Virus record (IMG/VR): IMGVR_UViG_3300042731_004843
Location: 44,146 to 108,145 of that record
Strand: one strand, 5' to 3'
DNA from: a virus
DNA length: 64,000 nt
Shown: positions 9,576 through 59,510 of the stretch, one piece after another
How positions within the stretch are numbered: the stretch's first letter is position 1
Layout of the letters: each line of letters starts with the position of its first letter
The notes under the pieces: generated by a model
Seen by the model: the letters and a program-made list of their open reading frames with translations, nothing else
Told to the model about the DNA's origin: nothing
Databases searched by the model: none
Program-made: the position numbers and the translations under genes

Positions 9576-9630
9576 GTACCTTACCAGATCTGGTAAGGTA
9601 CATTTATACATACATCGTCCGCCCTGTCAA
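9576..9630 (-). promoter_or_regulatory. sigma70-like promoter (TTGACA-N16-TATAAA) with a 26-bp perfect palindrome over the predicted start site
   Basis: Minus strand TTGACA 9630-9625, TATAAA 9608-9603; palindrome gtaccttaccagatctggtaaggtac 9576-9601. Confidence 0.65.
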
Positions 9631-9998
9631 AACCTATAATTGCGGAAGAACTGCCAGGCTTCGTAGAAGAGTCCGCGGAGGGCACCGCTGGCGCAATCTT
9701 TGGCGAAGCGCTCTATGGCGCGTTCTCCTTCGCCAACGATACCGCTTTCGCAGTTAGATCTCAGTCCGTCATCAGCGTCCTCTCCGTACCGCCGAGAGCG
9801 TCTGCCGGCGGTATTGGTGCGGCCGATTACTGTGGGGCGGGGAGAGAATGGACGCCGACTGTCTACTACCTCCATGCGGCAACTATGTTGGTACCTGCAG
9901 CCTTGACATTCGTGGTCATCGAGGCTGAAAGTGTGGGGGTTGCCCCAGCAGCTGGGGCGGTTGTCGTCGTTAGAGCTGATGTGGTCGTCATACGACAC
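9627..9998 (-). CDS. hypothetical protein with N-terminal Cys4 motif
   Basis: AGGAG SD; CWG...ECQGCRYQHSC. Confidence 0.75.
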   Translation of the reverse strand: MSYDDHISSNDDNRPSCWGNPHTFSLDDHECQGCRYQHSCRMEVVDSRRPFSPRPTVIGRTNTAGRRSRRYGEDADDGLRSNCESGIVGEGERAIERFAKDCASGALRGLFYEAWQFFRNYRF

Positions 9999-19600: not shown

Positions 19601-22600
19601 TTCGCGTACAAGAAATTCACCAGCTATCTCAACGCGCTAGGGGTCAACGTTAAGAAGGACGGCAACAATCTCTCACTCATCCCGTTCACCGATAAGCAGG
19701 TGGAGGAGATGAGTAATGGGCAGATCAAAGACGCAGCCAGGATGGTGCGGGCCAAGGACCTACGCCCAGAGACTGGAGGGCTGTTCGATCCCAAGACCAC
19801 TGGCGGTGTTGACGGTACGAAGTGGAGCCACATTCGTCTGGCCGAGGCTATGCCCAACCCCTTGTTCGAGCGGGCGATACAGAGCCTCACCGGACTAGAT
19901 CAGAAGAAGTACACGGATCTGGTTACTGGTAGGGCGGCTTTGGATAAGAGCGGCAACCTGACCTCCAACTTGGACGCCGGCGTAACCGGTGGTGCTGCAA
20001 TAGATAGTCTGCTCAAGAAGGTCGACACCAAGACGGCACTGGAACAGGCGCAGAAGGAGCTGGACAACCCCAACCTGAAGGGCAACCGCCTCGACCAAGC
20101 CAACAAGAAGGTCAAGTTCCTGCGGGCGCTAGATTCCGCAGGACTGAATGCCCGGGACGCGTACATGATGCAGAACGTACCGGTCCTGCCGCCGTCCATG
20201 CGCCCCATCTCCCAGCTACCTAATGGCGATCTCAATTTTGACGACGTCAATGGCCTCTACAAGGGGCTGCACCTAACGTCGTCCCAATTAAAGAAGCAGC
20301 AGTCTAGTAAGTTGCTGCCGCCAGAAGAGATGCAAGAGACCAGGGAGGAACTCTATGATGGGCTACGTGCATTAACTGGTTTGGGCGGCAATCCAAGGCA
20401 GGAGTTCCGCGGCATCCTGGACGTGATCGGAGGCAAAAGACTGGAGACGTCTGGTGGCCGGGCAACTGGTAGAAAGGTGGGCTCACCAAAGGAGGGCTTC
20501 TTTCAGAAGAAGTTGGTGCAGAGAAAGCAGGACCTCTCTATGCGGTCCACCATCATCCCCGAGCCGGCACTAGCTTTGGACGAGGTGGGGCTGCCCAGAC
20601 GTGCGGCGCTTGAGCTCTACAAGCCATTTGTGGTTAGGGAGCTGCGCAACATAACTGGCGCTTCCCCATTGGAAGCGCAGAAGAAGATCGGAGAGGGCGG
20701 ACAGTTGGTAAACAGGGCGCTTGAGCGTGTGGTAGAAAGCCGCCCCGTCTTGTTGAAGAGAGACCCGGCACTGCACAAGTACAGTGTGCAGGCCTTCAAG
20801 CCGCGCATTGTGGGCGGCAAGGCTGTCCAGATCCACCCGCTGGTGACCTCCGGCTACAACGCAGACTTTGACGGGGACACGATGGCCGCCTTCGTGCCCG
20901 TGAGTAATGAGGCCGTTGAGGAAGCCAAGAAGATGTACCCCTCGAGGAACCTTTTCAGCCCCTCGACTGGCAGCTTGATGTACTCCCCTACGCTGGAGAC
21001 CCAGCTTGGTCTGTACGGCATCACGCAGCAAACCGGAAAGAAGACAGGCAAGCAGTTCAAGGACATCAAAGAGGTCCACTCCGCTTTGAACAAGGGCCAG
21101 GTAGGCCTCAATGATACTGTCCGAGTGGGTGGCCTGACGTCCACGACGGGTAAGTTTCTGGTGGGGGAGGCGCTACCAGAAGATATGCGCAAGGATTTCC
21201 TCAAGAGGAAAGACCCCCTGGACAAGGCCGGGCAAAAAGAGCTGCTTACAACACTGGCCAAGCAGCACCGCAATGACTACGGGGAGGTGGTCAACAAGCT
21301 AAAGGACCTGGGCAATCGCTGGTCGACGGATACCGCGTTCTCTATTGGTCTGGACGACATCAAGCCGGAGACACGGACGAGAGATAAGATCTTGAAGGCC
21401 GCGGAGAAGCGAGTGGCTGCGGCAGGCGGCAAACCAGAAGCGGCCATACGGGAATTCGACAAAGCCACGCAGGAGATGGCCAAAGAGTTCGCCAAGATGC
21501 CAGAGGGCCGTAGCGCGCTGCTCACTATGAACCGTTCCGGTATCAAGCCCTACAACGACACTCTTCGGCAGATCAAGATGGCCCCCATGCTGATCGCTAA
21601 CGCCAAAGGAGAGGTCATCCCCACTCCGGTACGCAAGTCCTACGCAGAGGGCCTGGATTTGGCAGACTACTGGACCTCGATGAGTGGGGCACGCAAGGGC
21701 ATCATCCAGAAGGTACAACAGGTCCAAGAGCCTGGGTACTTGTCCAAGCAGGTTATGAATTCTGTGATGAACAACACGATCGCGGACAATGACTGCGGTA
21801 CGGACAAGGGTATTGCGCTGCCGACAGACGAGAAGGATATCCTAGACAGGTACACGGCTGCGCCAGTACGGGCTGGAAAGAAGACCATACCCGCAGGTAC
21901 GTTGGTCACTCCAGAAGTACGGAACACGTTGCGTAACAACAGGGTAGGGCGGGTGGTGGTGCGCTCTCCTTTGCGCTGCCAGCACGGCCCAGGTCTCTGT
22001 AAGAAGTGTTACGGCCTTACTGAAGACGGAAGAGAGCCGGAAGTAGGCTTGAATGTGGGCGTGTTGGCCGGACAGGCACTAGGTGAGCGCGCCACCCAGC
22101 TGGCTATGAAATCCTTCCACACGGGGGGCACTGTAGCGACCAAGGAGGGCCTGGTAGATGAGTTTCAGCGGGTAAAGAACTTGCTGCTCTTCCCCAAGAC
22201 TCTGCCGGGATCTGCTACTCTGTCTACCGTGAACGGCAAGGTAGACAAGATAGAGAAGGACCCTGCCGGTGGACACAACGTGTTCATCTCTGGGGAGAGG
22301 CACTACGTTCCCCAGAAGCGGGGCGTGCCCATGATGGGCGGAAAGACATTGCGCAGAGGGGCCCAGGTTAAGAAGGGTGCCGCGATCTCCGGGGGGGTGG
22401 TGAACCCGCACGATATGCTGCCGCTGACTGGTGTGGAGCCCGTACAGGGCTACCTATCCAATGAGCTGCACAACATCTACGGGCCTCATGGTATCCGCCG
22501 CAGGAATACCGAAGTGGTGGTCAAGTCGCTAACGAATCTCACCAAGGTGGATGATCCCGGAGACCACCGTGAGTTCATCCGTGGCGACTTTGCGCCACAA

Positions 22601-22855
22601 ACACTGGTCGCGAATATGAACAGGCGAGACAAAGGCAAACGGCCTGTACGCCACACACCAATCCTCAAGGGCGTGGACATGCTACCGCTGGACATGCAAG
22701 AGGATTGGATTGCTAGAATGAATCACCAACGACTGTCTCAGACAGTCGTGGCGGCAGCGCAGCAGGGGTGGACCAGCAAGCTGCATGGTAAGCACCCTAT
22801 TCCTCCGGTTGTTTATGGTGCAGAGCTGGGCAAAGCAAAACCTGGAGAATACTAA
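16697..22855 (+). CDS. phage DNA-directed RNA polymerase, fused beta + beta' single polypeptide (2052 aa)
   Basis: beta motifs HTPEG, GYNFEDG, GDKIAGRHGNKG, MNPTGVPGRTNLGQ; beta' motifs GGLFD, VPVLPPSMRP, NADFDGD (20858-20878), bridge helix GARKG, trigger loop GERATQLAMKSFHTGG. Confidence 0.96.
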   Translation: MARLSPEESFEILKDRVAETVGGLFPIVGKKHTLELGQVDVNDRLHIDDIRSQKEAKLGSRTWAVPVEAKVVLRDNDTGKRVDEQKLRLMSLPKHTRRYSHIVDGQEYQIDNQWRLKSGVYARVKDNGELKSEFNLAKGRGFSLGFDPKNRQFHMSYGTSNIPLAPLLQEMGVPQAKIQEQWGSAIAQENDKDVEQAVLKFYKASTGKKADDYEQARQYMKDTLTATELRPDTTKVTLGKGYKSVTGDALMDASTKLLRISQGKAEPDPRDSLMFKDLHSTEDFFAERIQKSGRDITRRIQNTLDRKKRVSDIVGPDVFNRPIRTMYRTSLANVPDQTNPLEMMSGQMKTTITGEGGIKSSHAITEDAKLVDPSHLGYLDPIHTPEGASTGVSLRMPIGVKKKGHDVAVKMFNVKTGRLEDVNPEKAMNSTVVLPDQVRWQDGKPTPAGKTIKMSGPGNEIVEGPMKQADYIMRDPIQMFSMASNLVPFVAADHPNRSTMAGRHMEQAIPLQRRKAPLVQSVAGTKTFERVMGDYAGHTTRFAGEVVGIKKDAVVIKGDDGKNHEVQLYDHFPLNDDKGFLHSTPTVKVGDKVKKGQPIADTNFTDGGALALGTNLKVGYMPYKGYNFEDGIVISEGAAKELSSEHLYRKTLQRDRQHVLDKKKYQAYAPDAVTREQSDKLDDEGVIKPGQVVSPGDTLIAALREKKDTKEDRELARIHKSLVRPYTDASVKWEADHPGVVQEVVKKGKKLAVHVKTLEAAEIGDKIAGRHGNKGIITSILPDDEMPQTKDGKPLQILMNPTGVPGRTNLGQVLETAVGKIAEKTGKPYTVKNFQPNEDLHAKVTADLKAHGLPTDGKEEVVDPKTGRVLGRILTGPQHVVKLKHQVEKKMIARAGGPGYAYDRNLVPKGGGPHGAQALGTLGLYSMLAHGAKANLREMQTLKSDAGQSDEFWAALQAGEALPAPRPTFAYKKFTSYLNALGVNVKKDGNNLSLIPFTDKQVEEMSNGQIKDAARMVRAKDLRPETGGLFDPKTTGGVDGTKWSHIRLAEAMPNPLFERAIQSLTGLDQKKYTDLVTGRAALDKSGNLTSNLDAGVTGGAAIDSLLKKVDTKTALEQAQKELDNPNLKGNRLDQANKKVKFLRALDSAGLNARDAYMMQNVPVLPPSMRPISQLPNGDLNFDDVNGLYKGLHLTSSQLKKQQSSKLLPPEEMQETREELYDGLRALTGLGGNPRQEFRGILDVIGGKRLETSGGRATGRKVGSPKEGFFQKKLVQRKQDLSMRSTIIPEPALALDEVGLPRRAALELYKPFVVRELRNITGASPLEAQKKIGEGGQLVNRALERVVESRPVLLKRDPALHKYSVQAFKPRIVGGKAVQIHPLVTSGYNADFDGDTMAAFVPVSNEAVEEAKKMYPSRNLFSPSTGSLMYSPTLETQLGLYGITQQTGKKTGKQFKDIKEVHSALNKGQVGLNDTVRVGGLTSTTGKFLVGEALPEDMRKDFLKRKDPLDKAGQKELLTTLAKQHRNDYGEVVNKLKDLGNRWSTDTAFSIGLDDIKPETRTRDKILKAAEKRVAAAGGKPEAAIREFDKATQEMAKEFAKMPEGRSALLTMNRSGIKPYNDTLRQIKMAPMLIANAKGEVIPTPVRKSYAEGLDLADYWTSMSGARKGIIQKVQQVQEPGYLSKQVMNSVMNNTIADNDCGTDKGIALPTDEKDILDRYTAAPVRAGKKTIPAGTLVTPEVRNTLRNNRVGRVVVRSPLRCQHGPGLCKKCYGLTEDGREPEVGLNVGVLAGQALGERATQLAMKSFHTGGTVATKEGLVDEFQRVKNLLLFPKTLPGSATLSTVNGKVDKIEKDPAGGHNVFISGERHYVPQKRGVPMMGGKTLRRGAQVKKGAAISGGVVNPHDMLPLTGVEPVQGYLSNELHNIYGPHGIRRRNTEVVVKSLTNLTKVDDPGDHREFIRGDFAPQTLVANMNRRDKGKRPVRHTPILKGVDMLPLDMQEDWIARMNHQRLSQTVVAAAQQGWTSKLHGKHPIPPVVYGAELGKAKPGEY

Positions 22856-28097: not shown

Positions 28098-29927
28098 ATG
28101 TCCATAGTATCGCTAGACGAAGTGAAGTTGATCAGGTCCGCTAAGACCATGCCACTTCTCTACTCGGCGGACGGCGGAATCAAAGAGCCGTGGTTCGACT
28201 ACGATGAGGAGGGCATACCCACTGATTTTGGTCTGGATCTCGAGCCCCCTGACGTATCCCCGGAAGAGTTGGCGGAAATCGATCCCGACACGTTTATCTA
28301 CGACGTGTCGCCCTCCCAGTTCGCGGAGACGGCCATCAGAGTGCCCGAGGCTGGCCGGGTCACGGACTTCAAGTTCGAGGGGCGCGAATACCTGCGCAGG
28401 GTCTACGACTCTGACTCTAGGAAGATACTACTGAAGTGTGGGCGTCAGGTTGAGAAGAGCACGACCCTAGGTAACAGGCTGCTCTGCTACTCATCCCTGA
28501 CCAATAACTTCCGCTGTCTGTTCGTGGCTCCCTCGGCTGAGCAGGCCAAGGTTTTCTCCAACGACCGCATCAAGGACGTCATCGATGCGTCGCCGCTACT
28601 CAAGGCGTACACTTCCAGTAAGATCAACCAGGCCGTCTTCTTCAAGAAGTTCATCAACTTCTCCCAGATCCGGCTGCGCTATGCGTACCTTACGGCTGAC
28701 CGTGTCCGTGGTATCCCCGCCGACCTGGTTACCATTGACGAGATCCAGGACATCCTGATCGACAACATCCCGGTCATTGAGCAGTGTGCCTTCCACTCTC
28801 CCTACAAGTTGTTCCTCTACTCAGGCACTCCGAAGTCGATGGACAACACGATCGAGTTCTACTGGAACGAGTTCTCCACGCAGAACGAATGGGTAGTACC
28901 CTGTGAGCGGCACGGCACGCCCAACGACTCCAGCTCCTGGCATTGGAATGTTCTTACCGAGCGCAACATAGGTAAGAAGGGCCTAGTGTGCGACCGGTGC
29001 AAAGAGCCGATCAACGCACAGCACCCCATGGCGCGTTGGGCTGCCCTCAATCCGGTACACGAAGAGAACAAGTCCAAAGTCACTTTTGAGGGGTACCGCG
29101 TCCCGCAGATCATGGTGCCGTGGGTGGACTGGCCGGAGGTACTCCAGGCGCAAGAGCAATACCCCAGAGCCCAGTTCATGAACGAGAAGCTGGGCATGTC
29201 CTACGACTCTGGGGTGCGCCCCATCACTAGGGCACAACTTAAAGCCTGCTGCCAGCCCAGCATCCGGATGGGAGATATCGAGCACTTCAAGCAGATCGCA
29301 CAAGGTACACGGATATGGGCCGGGATCGACTGGGGGCCGGGGGAGAACGCCTCGTTTACGTGCATAGCATTCGGCGGGTACATGGGTACCGGCGTGTTCA
29401 ACATCTTCTGGGTCCATCGCTTCACTGGACCGGACCTCGAGCCTGAGAGACAGCTAGACCTGATCTCTCAGATGCTTTCCCAACTGAATGTTCAGTTGGC
29501 CGGCGTGGACTATGGCGGGGGCTTCTACCAGAATGATGCGCTGATCCGTCGCTTTGGACCGGCCAGGGTACAGAAGTTCCAGTACAACCCCCGACAAAAG
29601 AAGAAGGTCTACTGGGAGCAGAACCTGCTGCGGTGGATGTGCCACCGCTCCGAGGTGATGAGCGACGTCTTCAATGCCATGAAGCAGCAGAAGATAGCGC
29701 TACCTAACTGGGATGAGTTCTGTGACCCCTACGGCCAGGACATCCTGAACATCTTCAGTGAATTCAATGAGCGTCTGAGGATGATCGAATACAAGAAGGC
29801 CCCGGGCAAGACGGATGACGCCTTCCACTGCATCCTCTACTGCTTGCTGGCTTCTATGATCCAGAACCCGAGGCCGGACATCATCACGCCTATGAAGGAA
29901 GAGGGAATCCCGCAGCACCATGGCTAA
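28098..29927 (+). CDS. terminase large subunit (GpA-like ATPase + RNase H nuclease)
   Basis: KCGRQVEKST, RVRGIPAD..TIDEIQD, SGTPK, Zn ribbon, GIDWG, VDYGGG, DDAFH. Confidence 0.9.
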   Translation: MSIVSLDEVKLIRSAKTMPLLYSADGGIKEPWFDYDEEGIPTDFGLDLEPPDVSPEELAEIDPDTFIYDVSPSQFAETAIRVPEAGRVTDFKFEGREYLRRVYDSDSRKILLKCGRQVEKSTTLGNRLLCYSSLTNNFRCLFVAPSAEQAKVFSNDRIKDVIDASPLLKAYTSSKINQAVFFKKFINFSQIRLRYAYLTADRVRGIPADLVTIDEIQDILIDNIPVIEQCAFHSPYKLFLYSGTPKSMDNTIEFYWNEFSTQNEWVVPCERHGTPNDSSSWHWNVLTERNIGKKGLVCDRCKEPINAQHPMARWAALNPVHEENKSKVTFEGYRVPQIMVPWVDWPEVLQAQEQYPRAQFMNEKLGMSYDSGVRPITRAQLKACCQPSIRMGDIEHFKQIAQGTRIWAGIDWGPGENASFTCIAFGGYMGTGVFNIFWVHRFTGPDLEPERQLDLISQMLSQLNVQLAGVDYGGGFYQNDALIRRFGPARVQKFQYNPRQKKKVYWEQNLLRWMCHRSEVMSDVFNAMKQQKIALPNWDEFCDPYGQDILNIFSEFNERLRMIEYKKAPGKTDDAFHCILYCLLASMIQNPRPDIITPMKEEGIPQHHG

Positions 29928-32848: not shown

Positions 32849-34894
32849 ATGATCGTCAAGGTCTGCCAGTTCAAGGCTCGACGAGAACGAGGTGAGCGTC
32901 TCGTTGAAGTCTTCCAGCCCGGAGACATGGAGAAGGCGGCCGCCTTCTTTGGTGGGGAGCAGCAGTCTGCCGTGGGGCACCCGTACAGGGGTGGTATGGC
33001 TAAGACCGCGGCGCCCATGTTGCCCGAGGTGCAGGCCTACCTAGAAAAGTTACGCCCCGATTCCAACAGAATCTACGTCCTCGTCAATGCCCTTGGAGCT
33101 GGAGAGTTCTGGGGCTCGAACATCAACGGGGACTACTTCCCTGAAGCCTCCTTGATCCACAAAGGCCCAGTCTACGGGTACGAAACCTTCTATGGGGCCT
33201 TCCCTTACAAACACCATGTCAACAAGGACCCCAGCAGGTCCTTCGGTAAGGTGGAGCTAGCCGTCTGGAATGACCGCATGAAGCGTGTAGAGCTCGTGGT
33301 CATGATCGACAGGGCTCTGGCCGCAAGGTTCGGTGCGCAGGATGTCTGCGACAAACTGGACCATGGGCTGTTCCCAGACGTCAGCATGGGGTGCAAGGTA
33401 CCCTACGACCTCTGCTCCAAGTGCCTAGACTGGGAGAAGTACCGCCGGGCACAGTCCACCTTTGATCCTACTCGCCACCGTTCGGTGGGGGCCGCCGTAC
33501 TGGAGTTCCACAAGAAGAATCCTATCCGTGGGCTCTCTGTCACTCGCGATGACTACTGTGAGCACCTCAAGACGATGCTCAACCGCATCCTTGGGGACGG
33601 TGTTAAGGTCTACGCGATCAACGACTACCCCCGCTTCTTCGACATCTCGTTCGTGTTCATAGGCGCGGACAAGACAGCAAAAGTCATGGCAAAGTTGGCT
33701 TCGGCACATACTGGGGGGGCCATATATGTTGTCGAGCCATCTTGGCAGGTGGCGGAGAATCTGGGGTACGAGCAGCCCTCCACGGAGAAGGAGCTCGAGC
33801 TGGAGAAGGCGGCCGCCGTGCAGTGGATCGCACGTGGAGGTCCCAAGCTCCGGCAGGCAGCTAGAACCGTGACGAAGGGGGTTCGGGGTAAAGCTACGAC
33901 AGTCAAGGAGATCGGGGGAGAAGCAGCCGAACGTGTCCTGGAGCGTAAAATGGAGCGCACGAAGGGCAAGGAGAAGCTGTCAGGCATCGAGGCGGTGCTG
34001 GCCAAGCTGCAAGAAAAAAGGGCTTCCCAGTCCAAGGGCGCGGAGATTATAAAGGAAGTCGTTCCGACACAATTCGGTAGTAAGGCTGTGCCTTTGGAAG
34101 GATCAAAAAGACCAGATCTACCTGATGAGGTCCTAGACGCTCTGGGCGGATGTCCATTGAGCGAGGCCCTCTCCACTCCCACCACGATGGGCATGGTACT
34201 GAAGCCCCGCGAGTTCCAGCGCATCACCATCATCCATGTTGGCAAGAAGCCCCTGGCCGACGCACTGGACAAAGACGGGAAGTTGTTTGCTCCTGTAGAA
34301 GGATCGGACACCTCTGTACCAATGGGCGGAGAGCACTTCAGCGAGATGCTGAAGAAGCTCCTGTTGCCGTTTCTCGAAGATCGCAGCTGCCTAGAGCCCA
34401 TCGCCAAGCGCAGACTCATCCGGGTCACGGTCGGCAAGCAGCCGGAGCACGAAGACCCGGATCGGGAATATGTGCAAGATGACCCCTTCCTACAGAAGAT
34501 CTCCTCAGCCTATAATGGCTACCTAGATCGCTTCGTGGACTGTTGGAGGGACGCGCCAGTGATCGTAGATCAGCACGCTGATCTTTGGGAGGCGGTGTTC
34601 AGGGAGGGCGTGGGAGACGGCTTCTCGAAGGAGGCTGCGGGTACAAGGGTGAATCCGGCTGTGGTTTTGGCAGGTATCGGGGCCGGATACGGACTGAGCG
34701 AGTACGCACGATGGCAGCGAGAAAAAGCCAGGATGGGGAGTCGGGCGCCAGTGGGTCCTGTCATGGACACGCTAGCGGAGTACCCGAAGCTCTTGGCAGC
34801 GCTGGGCGGTCTCGCTGCTTTAAAACAACAAGGTTCCAAAATCCCGGACAGATTGTTCCACGGCATCAAAGGTGCGATCACGATGGGTAAATAG
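32849..34894 (+). CDS. prohead maturation protease (HK97/assemblin-type fold) with C-terminal extension
   Basis: NINGDYFP, KHH (His), VSMGC (Ser), FFDISFV..GADKTA; upstream of scaffold and MCP. Confidence 0.75.
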   Translation: MIVKVCQFKARRERGERLVEVFQPGDMEKAAAFFGGEQQSAVGHPYRGGMAKTAAPMLPEVQAYLEKLRPDSNRIYVLVNALGAGEFWGSNINGDYFPEASLIHKGPVYGYETFYGAFPYKHHVNKDPSRSFGKVELAVWNDRMKRVELVVMIDRALAARFGAQDVCDKLDHGLFPDVSMGCKVPYDLCSKCLDWEKYRRAQSTFDPTRHRSVGAAVLEFHKKNPIRGLSVTRDDYCEHLKTMLNRILGDGVKVYAINDYPRFFDISFVFIGADKTAKVMAKLASAHTGGAIYVVEPSWQVAENLGYEQPSTEKELELEKAAAVQWIARGGPKLRQAARTVTKGVRGKATTVKEIGGEAAERVLERKMERTKGKEKLSGIEAVLAKLQEKRASQSKGAEIIKEVVPTQFGSKAVPLEGSKRPDLPDEVLDALGGCPLSEALSTPTTMGMVLKPREFQRITIIHVGKKPLADALDKDGKLFAPVEGSDTSVPMGGEHFSEMLKKLLLPFLEDRSCLEPIAKRRLIRVTVGKQPEHEDPDREYVQDDPFLQKISSAYNGYLDRFVDCWRDAPVIVDQHADLWEAVFREGVGDGFSKEAAGTRVNPAVVLAGIGAGYGLSEYARWQREKARMGSRAPVGPVMDTLAEYPKLLAALGGLAALKQQGSKIPDRLFHGIKGAITMGK

Positions 34895-38231: not shown

Positions 38232-39353
38232 ATGAGCGTTCCCGCAAGAGTACTGAATGACCTCTTTTCCCAGAAGCTGGGCACCAGCGAGGGGAAGGAA
38301 AAGATCGCGGAATACGCAGGCACCTACATTCGTGACCGGCTGCGTGAAGTCAGCTTTGCGCGCAAGATTCTGCCCCCGCAGATGGTCACCCGTGCGGACT
38401 GCCAGCGTTCCGTCAACCACGACACCCTGGTGAAGATCATCGACGTCGAGCCCAAGAGCCGCGCGATGGCCATCACCTTCCGCGGTCAGCCGACCGCACG
38501 GTTCATCCGCGCTCCCAGGGCGGAGGTTCCGTTCTTCACCGTCTCGAGCGAGAAGTTCGAGAAGACCGAGCAGGAGCTCCTGGCCTACGAGATGCCGATC
38601 ACCAAGGTGATCGAGGACAACTCGGTCAAGGACATCCAGGAGATCGAGGACCGTGAGTTCACGATCCACATCGAGGCGGCTGTCCAGGCCCTCCAGGCGG
38701 AGGCCAATGGCGGCGTCACGACCACCCTGAATGCCACGTCGGTTCAGGCCGGTACCGTGGTGGAGTTCTCGGTGCGCAAGGGTGAGCTGGCCCGCAACGC
38801 CACCACCGATGACGGCACCGTCTATCCGGTACAGAGGCCGGACTTCGTCAACCTCTTCAAGCTGTTGGACGGCAACAGGCTGCGCGCGGAGATGGTTCTC
38901 ATCACCGAGGTGGACTGGGACGACATCCTACAGTGGACCGTTGAGGATTTCGGTGACCGCGTCCAGTCCGAGACGACGGTGGACGGCTACAAGTACAACC
39001 TGCTTTTGGGCCGGGCGTACTGCCGCACCATCAAGACGGACATCCTTCGTCCAGGCAACATCTACTGCTTCACCAAGCCGGACTTCTTTGGCCGGTTCTT
39101 CATCCTGAACAACACCAAGTTCTACATCGACAAGATCGCGAACCTGATCACGTGGCAGTCCTGGGAGGACATCGCCATGTCGGTCATCAACATCGCGTCG
39201 GTGCGGAAGGTGGAGCTGTACTCGGGTGACGCGACATCCAACGACGCCGATGGTATCCTCTCTTCGGTCATCCCCGTGGACGAGGAAGATCTAGGCGCTG
39301 AGAACAACCGAGTCGATTCCGGCCTGGTGTTCCCGGGTGTCGAGGTCTTCTAG
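38232..39353 (+). CDS. major capsid protein
   Basis: IRDRLRE.SF.RKIL, DIQEIEDRE, PDFFG motifs; strong codon bias; followed by terminator. Confidence 0.8.
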   Translation: MSVPARVLNDLFSQKLGTSEGKEKIAEYAGTYIRDRLREVSFARKILPPQMVTRADCQRSVNHDTLVKIIDVEPKSRAMAITFRGQPTARFIRAPRAEVPFFTVSSEKFEKTEQELLAYEMPITKVIEDNSVKDIQEIEDREFTIHIEAAVQALQAEANGGVTTTLNATSVQAGTVVEFSVRKGELARNATTDDGTVYPVQRPDFVNLFKLLDGNRLRAEMVLITEVDWDDILQWTVEDFGDRVQSETTVDGYKYNLLLGRAYCRTIKTDILRPGNIYCFTKPDFFGRFFILNNTKFYIDKIANLITWQSWEDIAMSVINIASVRKVELYSGDATSNDADGILSSVIPVDEEDLGAENNRVDSGLVFPGVEVF

Positions 39354-40937: not shown

Positions 40938-41006
40938 ACAATGGTAAGTACGATAATGGTTGCTATCCTTGCTGTGCAGTCGTACGCTACTTCTATGGAG
41001 GTAGCT

Positions 41007-41774
41007 ATGGCAAAAGTACGCTTGGATCATGGGCTGATCGTACGTCTTTACCAAGAGGGTAAGTCTGCTGCTGAAGTGGCAGTGGCGGCAGGTTGCTCGA
41101 AACCTGGGGTGCTTCATGTGTTACGTCTACACGAAGTGCCACTTCGTGTAGGGGCTAAAAGATCAGATACGGAGAGGCGTCTAGGGTTTCAGCCGACGAA
41201 GACGTGGGTACTCTCTCTGCTACAAGAAGCGGATAGCGCAAAGCAGGCAGCAGAAAAAGCCAACGTCCCGTACTCTACATTTATCGACTGGATGGACAAA
41301 TTGGACGTCTCTCGGGCCCCCTGGCGCGGTGGGCCCAGAAGCGGCAATGCGCGCAGACAAGAGATCCCCATCGAGGAGGCGATTGCACTTTCCAATGAAG
41401 GCACGCCGTATGCGGAGCTCGCTGCTCGCTACGGCGTTTCCTACGGAGTTGTCTGCCGCCGGATGAAGGATGCCGGCCACGTGTCACCCAAAAACAAGCA
41501 GACCAAGCACTCCCAGTTCCGCCACGTACAGGTGCAGAAGCGTCGGGTTCTGAACGAGTTAGGCATTACTACCTGTCAGATTTGTGGCGAGAGCAGGTCC
41601 CTGGACTATTCTCACATCGTGGCTGATAGGGACGGCGGGCCTATCGCCGCCGACAATTGTCTTGTTTTGTGTCCTTCGCACCATCGATTTTTCGATAGCG
41701 ATTCCCTGACGTCGGCCGAATGGCGTAAGATTTCTCGCAAGGTATTGGCGGCAAGGAAGAAGTACGCCGTTTAG
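41007..41774 (+). mobile_element. free-standing HNH homing endonuclease with N-terminal HTH repeats
   Basis: CQICGE.....SHI....GG....N...LCPSHH; start re-called at ATG 41007 (GGAGG); more AT-rich than flanks. Confidence 0.8.
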
Positions 41775-46999: not shown

Positions 47000-49900
47000 A
47001 TGGCTGATGAGCTGATCCAACCTGGCGTATCCGTAATCCAGGAGTTTAGGACGATCAGTCCGACCATCATCACCCCGACGCTGGTTCCGTGCGCCATTGC
47101 GCCGGCCTTCCAGGTTATCGAGGCGCTGGAGACGGACGCTACCGGTAATCAGGTGGTGAACACGGATGCCGTGGCATCCGTGCCGGCATTGGTGGAGTCG
47201 GAAAATCCCGGTGACTACACCGGCCTAGACACGTTGACTCTAAAGGTGAGCGTGAACAACGGCCCGGCACAGGAGTTCACCTTCAGTGACCCGACAGCAT
47301 CGGGCCTGAGTGCCACGGCGGTCAAAGATCAGATCGCAGCTGGAGCTCCCGATGGATTTGGGGCATACGTGGTCACCAGGAGTGGGTCGGACTACGTACA
47401 GCTCCGCACCATCAACAGCGGCGACGGTCAGATCCTTCAGATCTTGGACGGTACCGCCAACTCCATCCTTGGCTTCAACCAGGGGTGGCAGGCTGAAGGC
47501 GTCTCGACCTACCAGCAGGTAGACGTCCGGGTACAGCAGGACAACTTCCCGGACCCACGGGGACTGCTGCCGGATGAGGCTGATGTAGATGAGGACAGCA
47601 TCCGTGTCTTCGTCAACACCGGCACCACGCTGAAAGAGTTCCAGCGGGACGAGACCTTCTTGCGCAAGCTCAAGAAGGCCATCTACACCTCGGGCGACAT
47701 CACCTTCCCGACTACTACGCTGACCGGCAAGAAGTTCTCCTTCCAAGATGGGCAGGGAGCGGCCGTGCAGGAGTACACGTTCGCGGGTGAGGCTGCTACC
47801 GCCATTGCACTAGCAGCCGCAATGAACGCCCTGATCGGCTCCACCAAGGTGGTCGATAACGGACTCACCAAGATCGATTTCGTCACCGAGACCGGCTACT
47901 TCAAGGTGGTCACGCCTTCCAGCGACTCCGCCCACGCCATCATCAAGTGGACTGACCTGGATGAGGCGTACACCGTGGAGCCGGTGGATGATGGAGACGG
48001 GGACTCGAGAACTCCGATCATCGTTATCGATGAGGAGGACTTCACTGCCCCCGCCACCGAGGCCAATCTGGTAGGTACTGCCACATTAGGCGCCACGGAG
48101 CAGGTGATCAACAACCTCAGCTTCGAGGTCGCCGTAGATGGCGAGTACATGCAAGAGATCAACTTCGTCGGCAAGCCGCTGGTCGGTAGCGCTGTGTACA
48201 ACGCGGCCAACACCTTGACCGGTGAGACGCTGACCTTCGAGGTGAACGGCACACAGAAGGCTGCCGTGTTCTCTGGCGGCGATCCCGTCAGCATCGCCTC
48301 GGCCATCGCACAGATCAACGCGGCTGCAGGTATCACTGTGGCTTACGAGTCGGATTCTTTGGGAAATCCGACGGCTTCTGGTGGCTACCTGGCCCTCCGC
48401 GTGGGCGGAGCAACCCTGGTTGAGGGCGGCGACGTCAAGTTGCTCTATCAGGGCGTTGGCGATGACCCGACCTGGACAGACTTGGGCTACGCAGCCGCCA
48501 TCGGTGCGGATGTCGAGCAGACCTTGAAGCTGGATGCTCCGGCCGAGTACAGCGACATCGTTCGGCAGATCAACCAGACGATGGGGGCCGGCTTCGCTGA
48601 TGATGACGGTACCGGCAAGCTCGAGTTGCTGTCTTCCATCCAGGGAGCCGAGTCCAAGATCCAAATCGGCAAGGGCACGGCCAATACGTTGCTGGGCTTC
48701 ACTGATGACCAGACGACGTACGGTGACGCCTTTGCCCCCAAGATCGGAGATGCAGTTTGGGTAGACGGCGTCTTCATCGGCAACATCGCCGTGGTCATGC
48801 CCGGAGGGTACAACAATCGCCTGAAGCTGGACCGAGAAGTGGCCCTGACCTGGGGTGGAGTGGCGTACTACATTCAGGCCCAGAACATCCCTGACACACT
48901 ACCATCTGACAGGCCCACACCGGACCTGGTGGTGGACACTACCGGGGCCATCCTCGTGAAGCATGACGTGCTGCGCGACACTGAGGGCAACCCCATCGTA
49001 GCGGTAGGCCAGCTCATCATCGCCTACAACGCTCTGCGTCTGGACGTCACTCCCGCGGCGAATGATCCAGGACTGCTGACCCTGGACGACACCACGGACC
49101 TCGAGGACGCGCTGGCTCCGCTCAACACGGACAACCCGCTCGGGCTCATGTTGTACTTCATGCTCATCAATGCCCCCGGCATCACGGTCACGGGACTAGG
49201 TGTGGATGCGGTGAGCGCGGAGAACCCTGACGGAACTCCGGAAGCCTATGCCAGGGCGCTTGCCTACCTGGAGAGCAAAGAGGTCTACGCACTGGCTGGC
49301 GCTTCCCAAGATCCCACGGTGCACCAGCTCTTCCAAACTCACGTCAACGCGCAGTCCGACCCGGATGCCAAGGGAGAGCGCATTGCTCTCATCAACCCGG
49401 AGATGCCGGGGAGAGGCCGTACCCGACCTGGTCATCAGCGGCACGGATGGTGACTCGACGGCCATCACCAACGAATTCGACACCAAGCTGGCGGGGCTGG
49501 CCTCGGCTGTCTTGGCAGCAGGTATCAACCCCGTGGGCACCATCGGCGTGGATGAAGGCCTGTACCTCGACATCGCTTCTGACACCAAGAAGTACAGCAT
49601 CAGCGCGATCAGCGGTACGAAGGTCACTATCCGCGTGGCCTTTGCTCCGGGAGAGAACGACGACGGCTTCTACGCCACCACCAATTTGCCGAGCACTTTG
49701 ATCTCGGAGACTTTCTCTGTCAACGTGCGCGGCGAGAGCCTAGTGGACTCCAACGGGGATCCAGACTACGAGGCCATCGCACAGGCATACCAGGACACCG
49801 GTAAGGCCTACGCAGACAGGCGCATGGTCATGGTAGCCCCGGAAGAGGTGGGCGCTGTAGTAGACAACCTGGAACAGCGCATCAAGGGCTACTACCTGTG

Positions 49901-50405
49901 CTCGGCCATCGCCGGCATGGTTGGCCAGCAGGCCCCTCAGCAGGGCTTCACCAACTTCCCCGTCACCGGGTTCACCAGGGTGTTCGGCTCGAGTGACGTG
50001 TTCAACCGCACCCAGATGAACGTGGGTGCGGCAGGAGGTACCTACTGGGTCATCCAGACTCTGGCGGGCACGCCTCTTCTGGCACGCCACCAGCTCACCA
50101 CGGACCTCACCAGCATCGAGACCCGTGAGCTGAGCATCACCAAGGTGGTGGACTTCACCGCGAAGTTCATGAGGTCCGGCCTTCGGAACTTCATCGGCAA
50201 GTTCAACATCACCCAGCCGTTCCTGGACACGCTGAGCACGGTGGTACAGGGTCAGCTCTCGTTCCTCACGGAGTCGGGAGTCATCGTGGGCGGTGACCTG
50301 AACAACATCATCCAGGACGAGTCAGCCCCGGATACGGTGTTGATCGACGTCACTTTGGACGTTCCTTACCCATGCAACTACATCCGATTGACACTTGTCA
50401 TCTAG
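47000..50405 (+). CDS. contractile tail sheath protein, split by a +1 frameshift at GGGG 49408-49411 (about 1134 aa if joined)
   Basis: N-terminal QPGVSV; C-terminal RHQLTT, RELSI, FIGKFNI, VPYPCNYI; ORFs 47000-49453 and 49248-50405 join as ...NPEMPG-EAVPDL on removing one G. Confidence 0.85.
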
Positions 50406-53503: not shown

Positions 53504-53723
53504 TCGGTCCCACCATCAGTCCGGCAACGCGTTTCTCATAGTACGCTGTGATCAACGCGCGCACAACATCAGATGGCAGGTAGTTCTTGTCCTGCTGCTC
53601 GCCAATGCGCTTAGCCTCCAGCTCGAGGAACCGCATCATGGGAGGTGGTAGGAAGACGGTGAGGCGCCGGCGTATATCTTCCTGCGCCTCTTCTGGTCTT
53701 GATTTGTGGGTCTTACGTGGCAT
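53496..53723 (-). CDS. ribbon-helix-helix-like DNA-binding protein
   Basis: RRLTVFLP....FLE..A.......SDVVRALI pattern. Confidence 0.6.
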   Translation of the reverse strand: MPRKTHKSRPEEAQEDIRRRLTVFLPPPMMRFLELEAKRIGEQQDKNYLPSDVVRALITAYYEKRVAGLMVGPND

Positions 53724-56511
53724 CAGCCAGTGTGGATATCTTCCCGATACCGCGCCCCATACTGTCTACTACTTCATTGCAGTCGAGGCAGTAGAACAGG
53801 TCCTCGCCATGGGCCTCGTGGAGCCCCATTTCGTCCAGCTTTGTTGGTGGGATAGGCCGAATACGCACATGGTAGCCGCCCGTGCAAGTATGTCGGAGAC
53901 GCTGGACCTTGGGTCGTGGACACATGCATCCCCTGTCCGTGCCACATTTCTTGCAGTAGACGGGCTTGTACAGCTCGGTGCGCTTCTCCAGCTTGCGTGC
54001 GTCCTCTTGAGCCTTGTGTAGAGCCTCTACACGTTCTTGTTCCCTCGCAGGGGCCAGCTGCTTCTGCCTCTTGATGAACTCCTCAGTCTCCTGGGACCAG
54101 GACCTGTCCATCAGGGCAGCCAGCGGCACCTCTTCTGGAGTTGTGGTCTTGCTGAATCTCTCGACCGATTCGCGATCTACAGCCTCCTGAATTGCTTTGG
54201 CTCGCCCGGCCGCTATGGCGTCCGCGATGTTGCGGGCAGACCGACCGTAGCAGAACCTCCGGGGAATGGGCATCGCGAAGGCGGCATCGGCCATTCTCTG
54301 GTGGGGATCCATCGGCATGTCCTCGTAGAGGCGGCGCATGTTGTCCGTTTTCAGCACGTCCTTGGCCACTCTCTGGTGGGGATCCCAGACCTCACGTAGC
54401 TCCTCCGGAGGGATGAATGGGTTGTTCATCTTCCTCAGCATGTCCTCAGCCACCTCTGCGATGAAGTGCGCCTTCGGGTGGCCACAGTCGGACAGACCCT
54501 CCACGACCTTGCGTAGTACGTCGGCCGGTCGAGTATTGGACTGTTCCACAAGAACGGCCACTAGTGGCTGAAGCAGACAAGCTCGTACGGTATCTCCGGT
54601 CAAGGAGTCATCCCCAGGAGGAGTGGTCATCCGCACGTAGTGCATGGTTTGTCCGGAACGGCTCTTGGCCCTAAGCTGCAGATGGCCGGGTACCTCGCGC
54701 CCACTCGGGGCGTGCTCGAAAGTGACGCGATAGAGCGTATTGTGGTCATACGCCTTCGTGCCCTCGATCTCCGCCAGCACCGGGCTCTTGAGCAGTTTGC
54801 CGTTGAATACCCCGTCAACAACGGCATCGTCGTGGATCATGATGCCTTCTTCCCACGGCACCTCGAGCTCTTCTACCAGCCCCTCCATTATTTCTCGCTT
54901 GGTGGTGGAGAAGGCGCGAGCAGCGGGTTCGATGAACTTCTTCACCAAGAAGTGGGCATTGATATCGCCTACCTTGAGGGCGCGTCCGTACTCTAGGCCC
55001 TCCACGCCGTATGCTTCGAAGCCCACGTAGCCGTGTCCACGATCTTCTATGGACACGTCCTGCAGTTCTACGTCCTCCCCCTCCACCTCATACAGGGTAC
55101 GGCCTCCTTCGCAGTGCGGGAAAGTGGAGCAGCTCCAGAACCACTGCCCCTCCATGGGCCCGTGTTTGGCCAACCGGATTACCATGGGGGCGGCGCAGCT
55201 GGGGCAACTCGGCTGTCCACAGGCTTTGTACGCACATTCTTGTAGGTGAGAGCAGCCCTGGCACTCTTTATCGTGGACGTCGAAGTACTCTTCGTCCCCG
55301 ATGCAGTCCCGTCTTTCTGCTGTTTCCTTTTCCATCTTGGTCTTTACCTCCTGCCACACCTGCGCCTCCACACGCTGGCGTTCACGATAGAGGTTGTGTA
55401 TCTGCCGACTCCACACTCCCATTCCTTCGTGATCTTTATGGGCAGACGCGAAGTCGAATTTTGATTTCGCCTCAGTCTGAAGCATGATGAGGCGCTGTAC
55501 TCTTGGATCCTCCCGCACGATGAGGTCTGCGTCAGAAGTGGGCGATCCCTCCATCCTCTTCTTCATTTCCTCGGCCTGTTCCTCCGGAGATGCGTGGGGG
55601 TCTAGGTCTTTGGACAACGTACCCAGAAATCGCTCCTGCAGCTTCTTGAGCCCGACAATGCTGTCGTCGGTTAGCGGGCCGCTAGGCATGATGTACAAGG
55701 GGTCCACTGGTCGGAACTTACCCACGAATTCCGGACTCGAGAACCGAAAGGCGTTATCGTCGAACCAGATGTCCTCGTGCTTCGTTGGTTCGGCGGCCAC
55801 CTTACCCTCGATATGCGCGTGCTCTAGCGGTTTGACGGGCCAGACCGTTTCGATGTCCAGCGAGAAGACGTCGCCGTTCTTGTTCGGCACTCCGCGTTTC
55901 TTGATCGTGCCAAGGACCAATACGCACTGGTCTGGCTTGGAGGAGAAATCCATTCCTATTACGCGGTCGCCTTCTTGGGGCAGCTGGGCGTACCCATCGT
56001 GAGTAAGCGGTATCGAGACAGGCGTCAATTCTTTGCCGTCTGGGCCCGCTAGCATCAGCCCGGACCCGTTTAGGGCATCCTTCTTCTGCGCACCCATTTG
56101 TGCCGCTACGCGCAGCTCCAGCTGCTCGAAGTCCGCCACGACAACATCCGAACCTACGGACTGGACCGGCACATCTACCCCAGGTGCCCGATAGGTGGGT
56201 TGGTCCGGGTTGCATGTTGGGCACTTTGGCTCCGGCACGGAGCAGCCCATGGAGAACTCTTTCAGCTTGTCGAGCGTCATCAGCGTGCGCAAGGCCTCCT
56301 GCATCACAGGAGGGCCGTAGCCCTGCTCGTCTCCTTCCGGCGGCCATCGCCTCAACCTCCCCATGGGAGGCCCGTGAATGTAAAAGGAGGGTCGGGGCGT
56401 ATTGGTCTTGTCCCCCGGTTTAAGCCTTCCCGTTACGGTTCCTTTGTACGGCTGCTGCGCCTGCATCTTGGACTGCCACCACGTGTTCTCCGGCTTCTTT
56501 TCGTCGCTCAT
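53713..56511 (-). CDS. 932-aa mosaic protein made of short motifs of essential phage proteins plus Zn fingers
   Basis: See findings; includes a topoisomerase-type C4 finger CPSC...FWSCSTFPHC. Confidence 0.8.
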   Translation of the reverse strand: MSDEKKPENTWWQSKMQAQQPYKGTVTGRLKPGDKTNTPRPSFYIHGPPMGRLRRWPPEGDEQGYGPPVMQEALRTLMTLDKLKEFSMGCSVPEPKCPTCNPDQPTYRAPGVDVPVQSVGSDVVVADFEQLELRVAAQMGAQKKDALNGSGLMLAGPDGKELTPVSIPLTHDGYAQLPQEGDRVIGMDFSSKPDQCVLVLGTIKKRGVPNKNGDVFSLDIETVWPVKPLEHAHIEGKVAAEPTKHEDIWFDDNAFRFSSPEFVGKFRPVDPLYIMPSGPLTDDSIVGLKKLQERFLGTLSKDLDPHASPEEQAEEMKKRMEGSPTSDADLIVREDPRVQRLIMLQTEAKSKFDFASAHKDHEGMGVWSRQIHNLYRERQRVEAQVWQEVKTKMEKETAERRDCIGDEEYFDVHDKECQGCSHLQECAYKACGQPSCPSCAAPMVIRLAKHGPMEGQWFWSCSTFPHCEGGRTLYEVEGEDVELQDVSIEDRGHGYVGFEAYGVEGLEYGRALKVGDINAHFLVKKFIEPAARAFSTTKREIMEGLVEELEVPWEEGIMIHDDAVVDGVFNGKLLKSPVLAEIEGTKAYDHNTLYRVTFEHAPSGREVPGHLQLRAKSRSGQTMHYVRMTTPPGDDSLTGDTVRACLLQPLVAVLVEQSNTRPADVLRKVVEGLSDCGHPKAHFIAEVAEDMLRKMNNPFIPPEELREVWDPHQRVAKDVLKTDNMRRLYEDMPMDPHQRMADAAFAMPIPRRFCYGRSARNIADAIAAGRAKAIQEAVDRESVERFSKTTTPEEVPLAALMDRSWSQETEEFIKRQKQLAPAREQERVEALHKAQEDARKLEKRTELYKPVYCKKCGTDRGCMCPRPKVQRLRHTCTGGYHVRIRPIPPTKLDEMGLHEAHGEDLFYCLDCNEVVDSMGRGIGKISTLADAT

Positions 56512-58551: not shown

Positions 58552-59115
58552 TCAGCAATCCCTCTCTTTGAGTCTCCGGATGAGCCACTCAAACGCCGAT
58601 CGGGCATACGATGTCCAGCCGGTCACCCCGGTTTCGTGGTCCTTGGCTAACTGCTCCTCCAACAGCTCTATGGTACGTGCGCGCTCCTTGCGCTCGCCGT
58701 CCATGATCAGGGACAGGCTATCGAGATCCTGGTGGTAGTACTTCTCGAGCTCTTTTTCTAGCTTGACGGCGCGTTCTGCTAATGATGCTAGCTCCAGGTC
58801 TCGCTGGTGTATTACCCTCAAAGCCTCGCTTTCCGAGATCTTGGCTACCTCAGCCTCAGCCCCACGGTCGTGTAAGAGCTCAACTAGCACATCCAGTTCT
58901 TGCTGTATGCGTTTCCAACCGGTTGCTGCCTCTTCCCCGGTTGGTTTTGGCGGTCCCTGGGCGTAGCAGCCATGGCAATAGACGTTATAATCCCCCTCCC
59001 CATCTCTGAGTACTTCTGCCCATTCCCCTCCGCAGAATGGACACCTCAGCATGGCCCCCGTCTCAGGAGTAGGTGGATGCGTAAACCCTTTATCGTCGTT
59101 CAATCCATCACTCAT
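58552..59115 (-). CDS. Lar-like (restriction alleviation family) Zn-finger protein with coiled coil
   Basis: CPFCGG...VYCHGCYAQGP....EEAA..W; start re-called at ATG 59115. Confidence 0.6.
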   Translation of the reverse strand: MSDGLNDDKGFTHPPTPETGAMLRCPFCGGEWAEVLRDGEGDYNVYCHGCYAQGPPKPTGEEAATGWKRIQQELDVLVELLHDRGAEAEVAKISESEALRVIHQRDLELASLAERAVKLEKELEKYYHQDLDSLSLIMDGERKERARTIELLEEQLAKDHETGVTGWTSYARSAFEWLIRRLKERDC

Positions 59116-59510
59116 CTTAGGGGCTCCCACTTCTCTGCCATCTGCTCGACCTTGTCCGCTGGCACGCCGTGGCTGTTGCGGCATTCCTGTAGGGGGCGCT
59201 CGATGTGAACGATGTGAACTGGGATGTTCCGTTTCTTCGCCTCTTCCACAAAGAAGCGATAGTGCTCGTAGGCGTAGCTCACGTTGTCCACCACGATGGG
59301 CAGGGTACTCTCCGCATCTAGGGCCTTCAAGAACTGGTCTTGAGTCCACTGGATGGCCTCGGACAGCTTGTGGTAGTCGAACTTGTACTCCTCACCGTCC
59401 TTGGTCCAGAACTTGTCCATGCTTATGTGGGTGTAGGCCACCAGGAAGTTCAGGAAGGTCGTCTTGCCAGATCCAGGTAGACCGCGCAAGATGATCACAC
59501 TTTTCTGCAT
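59112..59510 (-). CDS. P-loop kinase (AAA_33 / polynucleotide-kinase-like)
   Basis: ILRGLPGSGKTT, VVDN, RNSHGVP..KV..M. Confidence 0.85.
   Translation of the reverse strand: MQKSVIILRGLPGSGKTTFLNFLVAYTHISMDKFWTKDGEEYKFDYHKLSEAIQWTQDQFLKALDAESTLPIVVDNVSYAYEHYRFFVEEAKKRNIPVHIVHIERPLQECRNSHGVPADKVEQMAEKWEPLR

Follow-up and report, generated by a model that had tools for sequence, protein, structure and literature searches.

A divergent phage accessory protein carries short, permutable segments resembling conserved parts of the phage's own core proteins

We analysed a 64,000-nucleotide (nt) stretch of viral DNA, hereafter the window, which makes up the right-hand end (64 kb) of an IMG/VR viral contig of 108,145 bp (IMGVR_UViG_3300042731_004843; CheckV completeness 58%), and in it an open reading frame (ORF), P0001, whose 932-amino-acid (aa) product appears to be strung with short copies of segments of the phage's own essential proteins. 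An initial annotation of the window had described this protein as a chain of motif mimics of phage core proteins and had proposed that they act as decoys. Judged by sequence comparison across the protein family, the segments that resemble the DNA polymerase PolA, the portal and a protease-like ORF of 681 aa are genuine copies, and a segment of the major capsid protein (MCP) may be among them; the copied segments are the most conserved, active-site-proximal parts of their source proteins. The accessory protein itself is genuine and diverges rapidly; it belongs to an undescribed phage family and is not a polymerase, a portal, an intein or a known defence protein. We tentatively favour the reading, to which we give a probability of roughly 0.4, that it is a displayed-peptide mimic competing for a binder of conserved core-phage-protein segments.

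Relatives of P0001 are few. A HMMER search of 1.8 billion representatives returned about a dozen true relatives, counted as 50%-identity clusters, while the remaining 471 matches of the family search cover a zinc ribbon only. The full-length relatives are 34-43% identical to P0001, and one of them, in the related phage contig G001 (117.7 kb), is syntenic. The comparison covered two genomes of the family, that of P0001's phage and G001: P0001 ranks second in divergence among their 47 common genes, with 34% identity against a median near 65% and against 71-83% for PolA, the portal, the terminase TerL and the protease-like ORF, and the cognate motifs in the source proteins are nearly identical between the two phages. 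The distant members P0006, P0008, P0013, P0035 and P0052 are not found in IMG/VR, and P0001 itself has no match in the phage GenBank collection or in deposited genomes (tblastn, megablast). Apart from the zinc ribbon, which is of the Top1 type, it belongs to no Pfam or PHROG family.

Resemblances this short could be fortuitous, P0001 then being an ordinary zinc-ribbon DNA-binding protein with a variable N-terminus, and taken alone its sequence is no better than shuffled sequence: when aa 1-290 were compared with the phage's 113 ORFs (Smith-Waterman, 300 shuffles), the maximum score was 52 against 52.7+-4.8 for the shuffles and the sum of the ten best scores gave p=0.23. The signal is found at the level of the family, because distant relatives carry the same short motifs in other places and orders. 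We built profiles of the individual segments, here called cassettes, from members other than P0001 and searched them in the phage proteome, with 40 shuffled proteomes as the null. The motif-A profile found motif A of PolA with 14.0 bits (null maximum 6.4), and that of a cassette with an SMGC motif found the protease-like ORF with 19.4 bits (null maximum 7.5). With p values of 0.025-0.05, the profiles for TGR, ExoI and the portal also led to the sites expected, the portal taking first rank (p 0.05); those of PIQ, N.NGD and G.D[FWY] placed the expected protein at the top but were individually not significant; and the MCP and His profiles did not find the expected protein in the phage proteome. 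Overall, 7 of the 11 cassettes ranked the expected protein first of 113 and two further ones ranked it second. A ranking that uses no motifs, to which ten members contributed the z-scores of their cassette-bearing parts, averaged over the 113 ORFs, put the protease-like ORF first, the portal second and PolA third. The chance that all three would fall among the five proteins predicted by the initial annotation is ~4e-5, and members without cassette regions gave z about 0.

Matches to established families point the same way. Pfam DNA_pol_A matches its TGR/NIP part in P0035 (E 0.0012), its motif A part in P0008 (E 0.0027) and also in P0004 and P0153, and its motif B part in P0013 (E 0.0015), while PHROG 'DNA polymerase' families match 4 of 12 members (best E 1.3e-6) and aa 723-776 of P0001 (E 0.019). 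Phage_portal matches P0004 and P0153 over ~60 aa (E 0.03-0.05, 13-14 bits), one member matches PHROG 'portal protein' (E 0.029), another match, in one member, is to the window MCP's own PHROG, 'major head protein' (E 0.009), and aa 175-265 of P0002 are colinear with aa 240-353 of the portal. Thus, although the shuffle test on P0001 alone and the failure of several claimed motif pairs would suit a chance resemblance, such a resemblance is largely refuted by three cassettes that match three parts of DNA_pol_A with E about 0.001 each, by the PHROG E-value, by profiles that score 14 and 19 bits where the null reaches at most 6-8, and by the placing of the top three ORFs; we give it next to no credence.

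The peptides quoted in the initial annotation and their counterparts in PolA, the portal, TerL, the 681-aa head ORF and MCP are all present, and its central claim, that short signature-motif copies of different essential proteins are joined in one accessory ORF, holds for PolA, the portal and the protease-like ORF, whereas about half of the motif pairs that it listed fail testing. Motif A of PolA and the SMGC motif of the protease-like ORF are strongly supported, the TGR/NIP motif of PolA is supported by both the profile and the P0035 match, and the GWG-P region of the portal is supported more weakly, by the Phage_portal matches and the colinearity of P0002. Motif B of PolA is found in other members (P0013) and not in P0001, in which the residues taken for motif B (FCYGRSARNIA) and for an MCP segment (AKAIQEAVDRE) align with the TGR/NIP cassette of the homologues and belong to a decayed copy of it. 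The ExoI-like, PIQ-like, N.NGD and MCP resemblances are weak, as is the likeness between two DPHQR.A repeats and the D-I-H...A...F motif of PolA. The segment likened to the TerL nuclease ranks TerL first but not significantly (z about 0), those likened to the sheath and spike proteins find no support, and the residues of IMIHDD, proposed as similar to PolA motif C, are not kept in homologues. Nor is the string limited to the first 270 aa, as had been thought: a second cassette-bearing linker lies near aa 700-800.

Turnover of the cassettes among homologues, which the initial annotation had named as a check, is extensive: cassettes are shuffled, gained and lost while their motif residues are kept. 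The order found in the closest subfamily is SMGC, motif A, His, G.D[FWY], N.NGD, VGKF, portal-like, scaffold, TGR/NIP and PIQ. P0001 departs from this order, its TGR and portal cassettes having been relocated to the N-terminal part with the decayed TGR copy left at the former site; in P0008 PIQ immediately precedes motif A; and in P0013, P0035 and P0052 the cassettes are thoroughly permuted, some of them standing after the scaffold. Individual cassettes measure ~8-60 aa, and up to ~90 aa in the case of the portal-like stretch of P0002. The motif residues are kept in members of 20-28% overall identity, whatever the position or order of the cassette. A circularly permuted protease domain does not account for the pattern, as the family order SMGC, His, N.NGD is the reverse of that in the protease-like ORF. 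Membership of the source families was likewise rejected. The family shares with family A DNA polymerases (PF00476) short segments resembling the TGR/NIP motif, motif A, motif B and a PIQ-type motif, but these reach at most 18.3 bits against a cut-off of 34.3, are permuted fragments of 30-57 aa and include no conserved motif C; for the phage portal family (PF04860), 13-14 bits against a cut-off of 39.1 are reached in P0004 and P0153 only.

The cassettes could in principle matter as DNA rather than as peptide, for example as ectopic target sites for homing endonucleases or CRISPR, or as donors for gene conversion of the essential genes. An exact match of 28 nt between P0001 (aa 12-20) and the portal gene, in frame and sense to sense (E 4e-9), is the sole non-hairpin exact repeat of at least 20 nt in the 108-kb genome, the motif A cassette and the PolA gene agree at 22 of 24 nt, and cassettes coincide with intein homing sites, all of which such a function would explain. 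Across nine pairs of cassette and cognate, however, the same codon is used at 19 of 47 identical residues (0 of 5 for TGR), the SMGC cassette is identical to its cognate at 24 of 45 nt, and in G001 there are no DNA matches of at least 16 nt; moreover, the amino-acid differences within critical motifs would make conversion harmful. We therefore conclude from the low same-codon use that the cassettes are kept as peptides, and consider a role at the DNA level very improbable. General copying at the DNA level is contradicted by the same codon use and by the repeat search of the genome. The 28-nt patch nevertheless indicates that short-patch copying into the P0001 ORF still happens, and the portal was the donor, since the G001 portal has a diverged version of this stretch at the same position. 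The two 28-nt copies are mutually inverted and 41.5 kb apart; were they to recombine, the whole structural module would be inverted and portal aa 1-510 hypothetically joined in frame to aa 21-932 of P0001.

The protease-like ORF, the likely source of three cassettes, is probably a prohead protease/scaffold fusion. Its family is a very large and highly conserved one of uncultured-phage proteins. Neither this ORF nor the portal ORF was identified in Pfam or PDB sequence searches, and the portal has no PHROG match; the nearest named atlas clusters of the protease-like ORF are the prohead proteases S78/S77 (0.81), which we take as a lead only. Homologues of the protease-like ORF carry inteins (C...HN, then C or S) after residues 89, 123, 181 and 236. 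The first three sites lie just before N.NGD, at a KHH motif and inside SMG^C, and these three intein-bearing motifs are the ones copied in the P0001 family. Inteins sit beside conserved motifs and active sites (PMC5050341), and the coincidence of intein sites with copied motifs is therefore an independent sign that what was copied are the parts of the protein under the strongest constraint. An intein identity of P0001 was rejected, the inteins lying in homologues of the protease-like ORF and not in P0001.

This coincidence is also what would be expected had the gene been assembled from PolA, portal and protease fragments by illegitimate recombination, perhaps at break-prone sites targeted by homing endonucleases, with the residues now serving the protein's own folding, metal binding or DNA binding and mimicking nothing. 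The copied protease motifs are intein sites, and hence sites of homing endonuclease cuts, in homologues; patch copying does occur, as seen in the 28-nt portal patch and a 22-nt internal duplication; the colinear portal-like part of P0002 resembles a degraded domain; and metal binding is conceivable for several cassettes that are rich in Cys, His or Asp. Residues that are kept at 20-28% identity regardless of position, however, are not predicted by a fold-specific role, and the cassette region is not modelled as a domain whereas the core is. We regard such a relic as rather doubtful, though it deserves to be taken seriously; endonuclease-induced breaks may have supplied the fragments.

The remainder of P0001 is a folded, zinc-binding and non-enzymatic-looking scaffold for the short in-frame copies. 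It comprises a helical hairpin and the Top1-type zinc ribbon, together with two sub-domains of beta/alpha type and, at the C-terminal end, a Cys/His module. In an AlphaFold model based on a 16-sequence alignment, the predicted local distance difference test (pLDDT) is about 30 over aa 1-281, whereas aa 330-700 reach 85-96 from the same alignment; a separate model of aa 430-720 has a pLDDT of 87.8. Proline makes up 11.4% of the N-terminal part against 4.6% of the core, and the cassettes are predicted to lie in disordered, proline-rich linkers. According to the initial annotation, an ordinary single domain with full-length homologues would have spoken against a motif string; such homologues do exist and two thirds of the protein is the folded scaffold, but the N-terminal part is not modelled as a domain. 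In P0002-P0004 and P0153 the N-terminal part of the helical region is colinear with portal aa 240-353.

The Top1-type ribbon (Zn_ribbon_Top1, PF01396) scores 24.8 bits in P0001 (E 1.9e-5), below the 32-bit gathering score, and 32-44 bits in P0002, P0003, P0004, P0006, P0013 and P0153; its four Cys are invariant among close homologues. With PF01396 proteins the family has the ribbon in common, which amounts to ~35 of 932 residues, but it lacks their Toprim and topoisomerase domains. Apart from Cys and His, E475 alone is nearly invariant and no conserved catalytic set is visible. Foldseek searches of PDB, BFVD and VIA-wide with the whole model and with the aa 430-720 domain gave no clear fold match; the lists are dominated by the long helical hairpin, and RNase-H-like rows are weak (Z 5-6). 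A reading of the C-terminal Cys/His module as an HNH endonuclease found no support: its profile finds no solved HNH structure, and the sole sign of one is a weak match of P0052 to Pfam HNH (E 0.31 over 14 aa). No family member matches Pfam Hint or LAGLIDADG families. A small ORF of 123 aa (9627-9998, minus strand) shares an ECxxC...EC-type Cys-rich module with aa 400-426 of P0001 (blastp E 8e-4). The two DPHQR.A copies (aa 710-745; 54277-54384, minus strand) are 25 codons apart and identical at 21 of 22 nt, and are therefore the product of a recent internal duplication.

According to the reading that we favour, P0001 would most likely act stoichiometrically as a self-mimic, competing for or titrating a host or rival-element factor that recognises conserved core-protein segments. 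As position is irrelevant while the motif residues are kept, each cassette would act alone as a displayed peptide. This reading is suggested by the position-tolerant, kept motifs, the flexible linkers, the non-enzymatic scaffold and the place of P0001 among the fastest-evolving genes, and a decoy function appears plausible. A more elaborate version seems unlikely: a poly-motif self-mimic, displaying on one scaffold the least mutable segments of polymerase, portal, head protease and perhaps capsid, would blunt several host or rival factors at once as a broad-spectrum counter to recognition of the core phage proteome, with short patches copied from genes of the phage keeping the string up to date. 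The T4 Gol peptide, which triggers Lit, provides a precedent for recognition at the peptide level. Bacterial immunity reads the conserved phage core, including portal, capsid, terminase and polymerase, which cannot mutate freely; if the mimicry is real, kept copies of such immutable segments, carried in any order on flexible linkers, would be a natural candidate for a phage answer and would offer concrete peptides to try against sensors. Whatever the function, the architecture is unusual: motifs from the active sites of other proteins form a conserved string that can be permuted and is refreshed by patch copying.

Several points weigh against such a mimic. Bacterial sensors reportedly recognise proteins of the kinds copied in the P0001 family: for the Avs sensors, detection of the portal, the MCP, DNA polymerase and further core proteins has been reported (PMC13581612). 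The same source, however, describes this recognition as based on fold and structure rather than on peptides, so that a simple linear-peptide decoy is not an easy fit. A mimic of a trigger could also activate the sensor and must bind without activating. A search of PADLOC-DB 2.0 with P0001 and nine neighbouring ORFs (E <= 0.01) found no family, PADLOC being made up of host defence models among which phage counter-defence proteins are not included. The members of the family are kin, each cassette thus counting as one evolutionary event. The protease label of the 681-aa ORF rests on the weak atlas lead together with motif logic, low pLDDT from a shallow alignment with permuted cassettes is no proof of disorder, and the P0001-alone comparison described above stayed at chance level.

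It is also conceivable that the cassettes are weapons between viruses, either dominant-negative fragments that would disturb how the homologous proteins of co-infecting phages or satellites fold or assemble, or integrated baits that report a rival element's attack on core proteins; the logic of integrated decoys is known from plant nucleotide-binding leucine-rich repeat (NLR) proteins. This precedent, the large share of the portal sequence spanned by the portal-like stretch and the fast divergence of P0001 would all fit. However, the cassettes are as close to the phage's own proteins as to any, which should lead to self-poisoning, and the scaffold has no recognisable effector or conserved catalytic set; we consider a role in virus-virus conflict distinctly unlikely.

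Our literature search found no paper describing such a phage protein, and the sole published analogue that it returned is that of Bodo saltans virus, in which an accessory ORF carries in-frame fragments of the catalytic regions of the virus's own essential genes, including DNA polymerase, and for which the authors proposed a decoy role; many inteins, too, are found in the essential genes of that virus (2018, eLife, PMC5871332). In both viruses fragments of own essential genes are joined to a binding scaffold, and in both the decoy role is a proposal. Bodo saltans virus, however, is a giant virus infecting a eukaryote and uses an ankyrin-repeat scaffold in place of the zinc modules of P0001, in whose family no ankyrin Pfam match was found. 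Its fragments are tied to the ends of the genome, where duplication and recombination have recently taken place, whereas the cassettes of P0001 are old, kept as peptides, present several to a protein and permuted, with DNA identity limited to the 28-nt patch and motif A.

The positions of P0001, its parts and the other genes discussed are collected in Table 1. The coordinates given for P0001 in the initial annotation are correct, and the ORF lies on the minus strand. P0001 belongs to a block of minus-strand ORFs in which stops and starts overlap, and its own start overlaps the stop of the preceding minus-strand ORF upstream by 4 nt. This block includes a 265-aa ORF (58552-59349, minus strand) resembling Lar-like restriction-alleviation proteins (PHROG E 4.5e-8; Pfam below cut-off), a hint that early or counter-defence genes are grouped here. 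A search of the phage's genome for a shared C-terminal address tag found none.

Table 1. Positions in the window of P0001, its cassettes and modules, and other genes discussed in the text.
Feature	Position	Strand	Remarks
P0001, whole ORF	53713..56511	-	932 aa; has full-length homologues
28-nt patch, aa 12-20	56452..56479	-	identical to portal gene 14869-14896
PolA TGR/NIP-like cassette, aa 24-41	56389..56442	-	N-terminal in P0001 only; P0035 equivalent matches DNA_pol_A
Portal-like cassette, aa 63-83	56263..56325	-	mid-protein in homologues, moved in P0001
SMGC / CP.C cassette, aa 86-100	56212..56256	-	resembles protease-like ORF 32849-34894; 19.4 bits
PolA motif-A-like cassette, aa 123-140	56092..56145	-	14.0 bits; DNA_pol_A matches in P0004, P0008, P0153
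G.D[FWY]-type strand, N.NGD and D.ET block, aa 183-222	55846..55965	-	kept in 10-11 members; TerL, protease and ExoI assignments first-ranked, weak or not significant
P.[FY]VGKF cassette, aa 257-266	55714..55743	-	kept in 6 members; MCP-likeness claimed, profile misses MCP
Helical region with long helical hairpin, aa 282-402	55306..55668	-	AlphaFold, Foldseek
Cys-rich module, aa 403-431, and Top1-type C4 zinc ribbon, aa 435-468	55108..55305	-	
Folded beta/alpha core, aa 470-700	54412..55104	-	two beta3-alpha sub-domains, pLDDT about 90
Second variable linker, aa 710-781	54169..54384	-	two near-identical DPHQR.A copies and decayed TGR/NIP cassette
C-terminal helix and Cys/His module, aa 800-932	53716..54114	-	most widely conserved part of the family
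Portal	13364-15385	+	language-model features 0.96-0.97
2052-aa ORF	16697-22855	+	matched along its length by several PHROG 'RNA polymerase beta subunit' families
TerL	28098-29927		PHROG
Protease-like ORF, 681 aa	32849-34894	+	between TerL and MCP; >1,785 homologues, no Pfam family
MCP	38232-39353		PHROG
Free-standing HNH endonuclease gene	40941-41774	+	between MCP region and tail genes
Sheath	49248-50405		PHROG

The phage as a whole is very divergent, and few of its ORFs match PHROGs, helicases being among those that do. A complete PolA is encoded just to the left of the window, 54 kb from P0001. The 2052-aa ORF appears to encode a multisubunit-type RNA polymerase in fused form, in a phage whose genome measures ~108 kb or more, and the portal gene lies ~13 kb upstream of TerL, between the replication genes and this RNA polymerase ORF.

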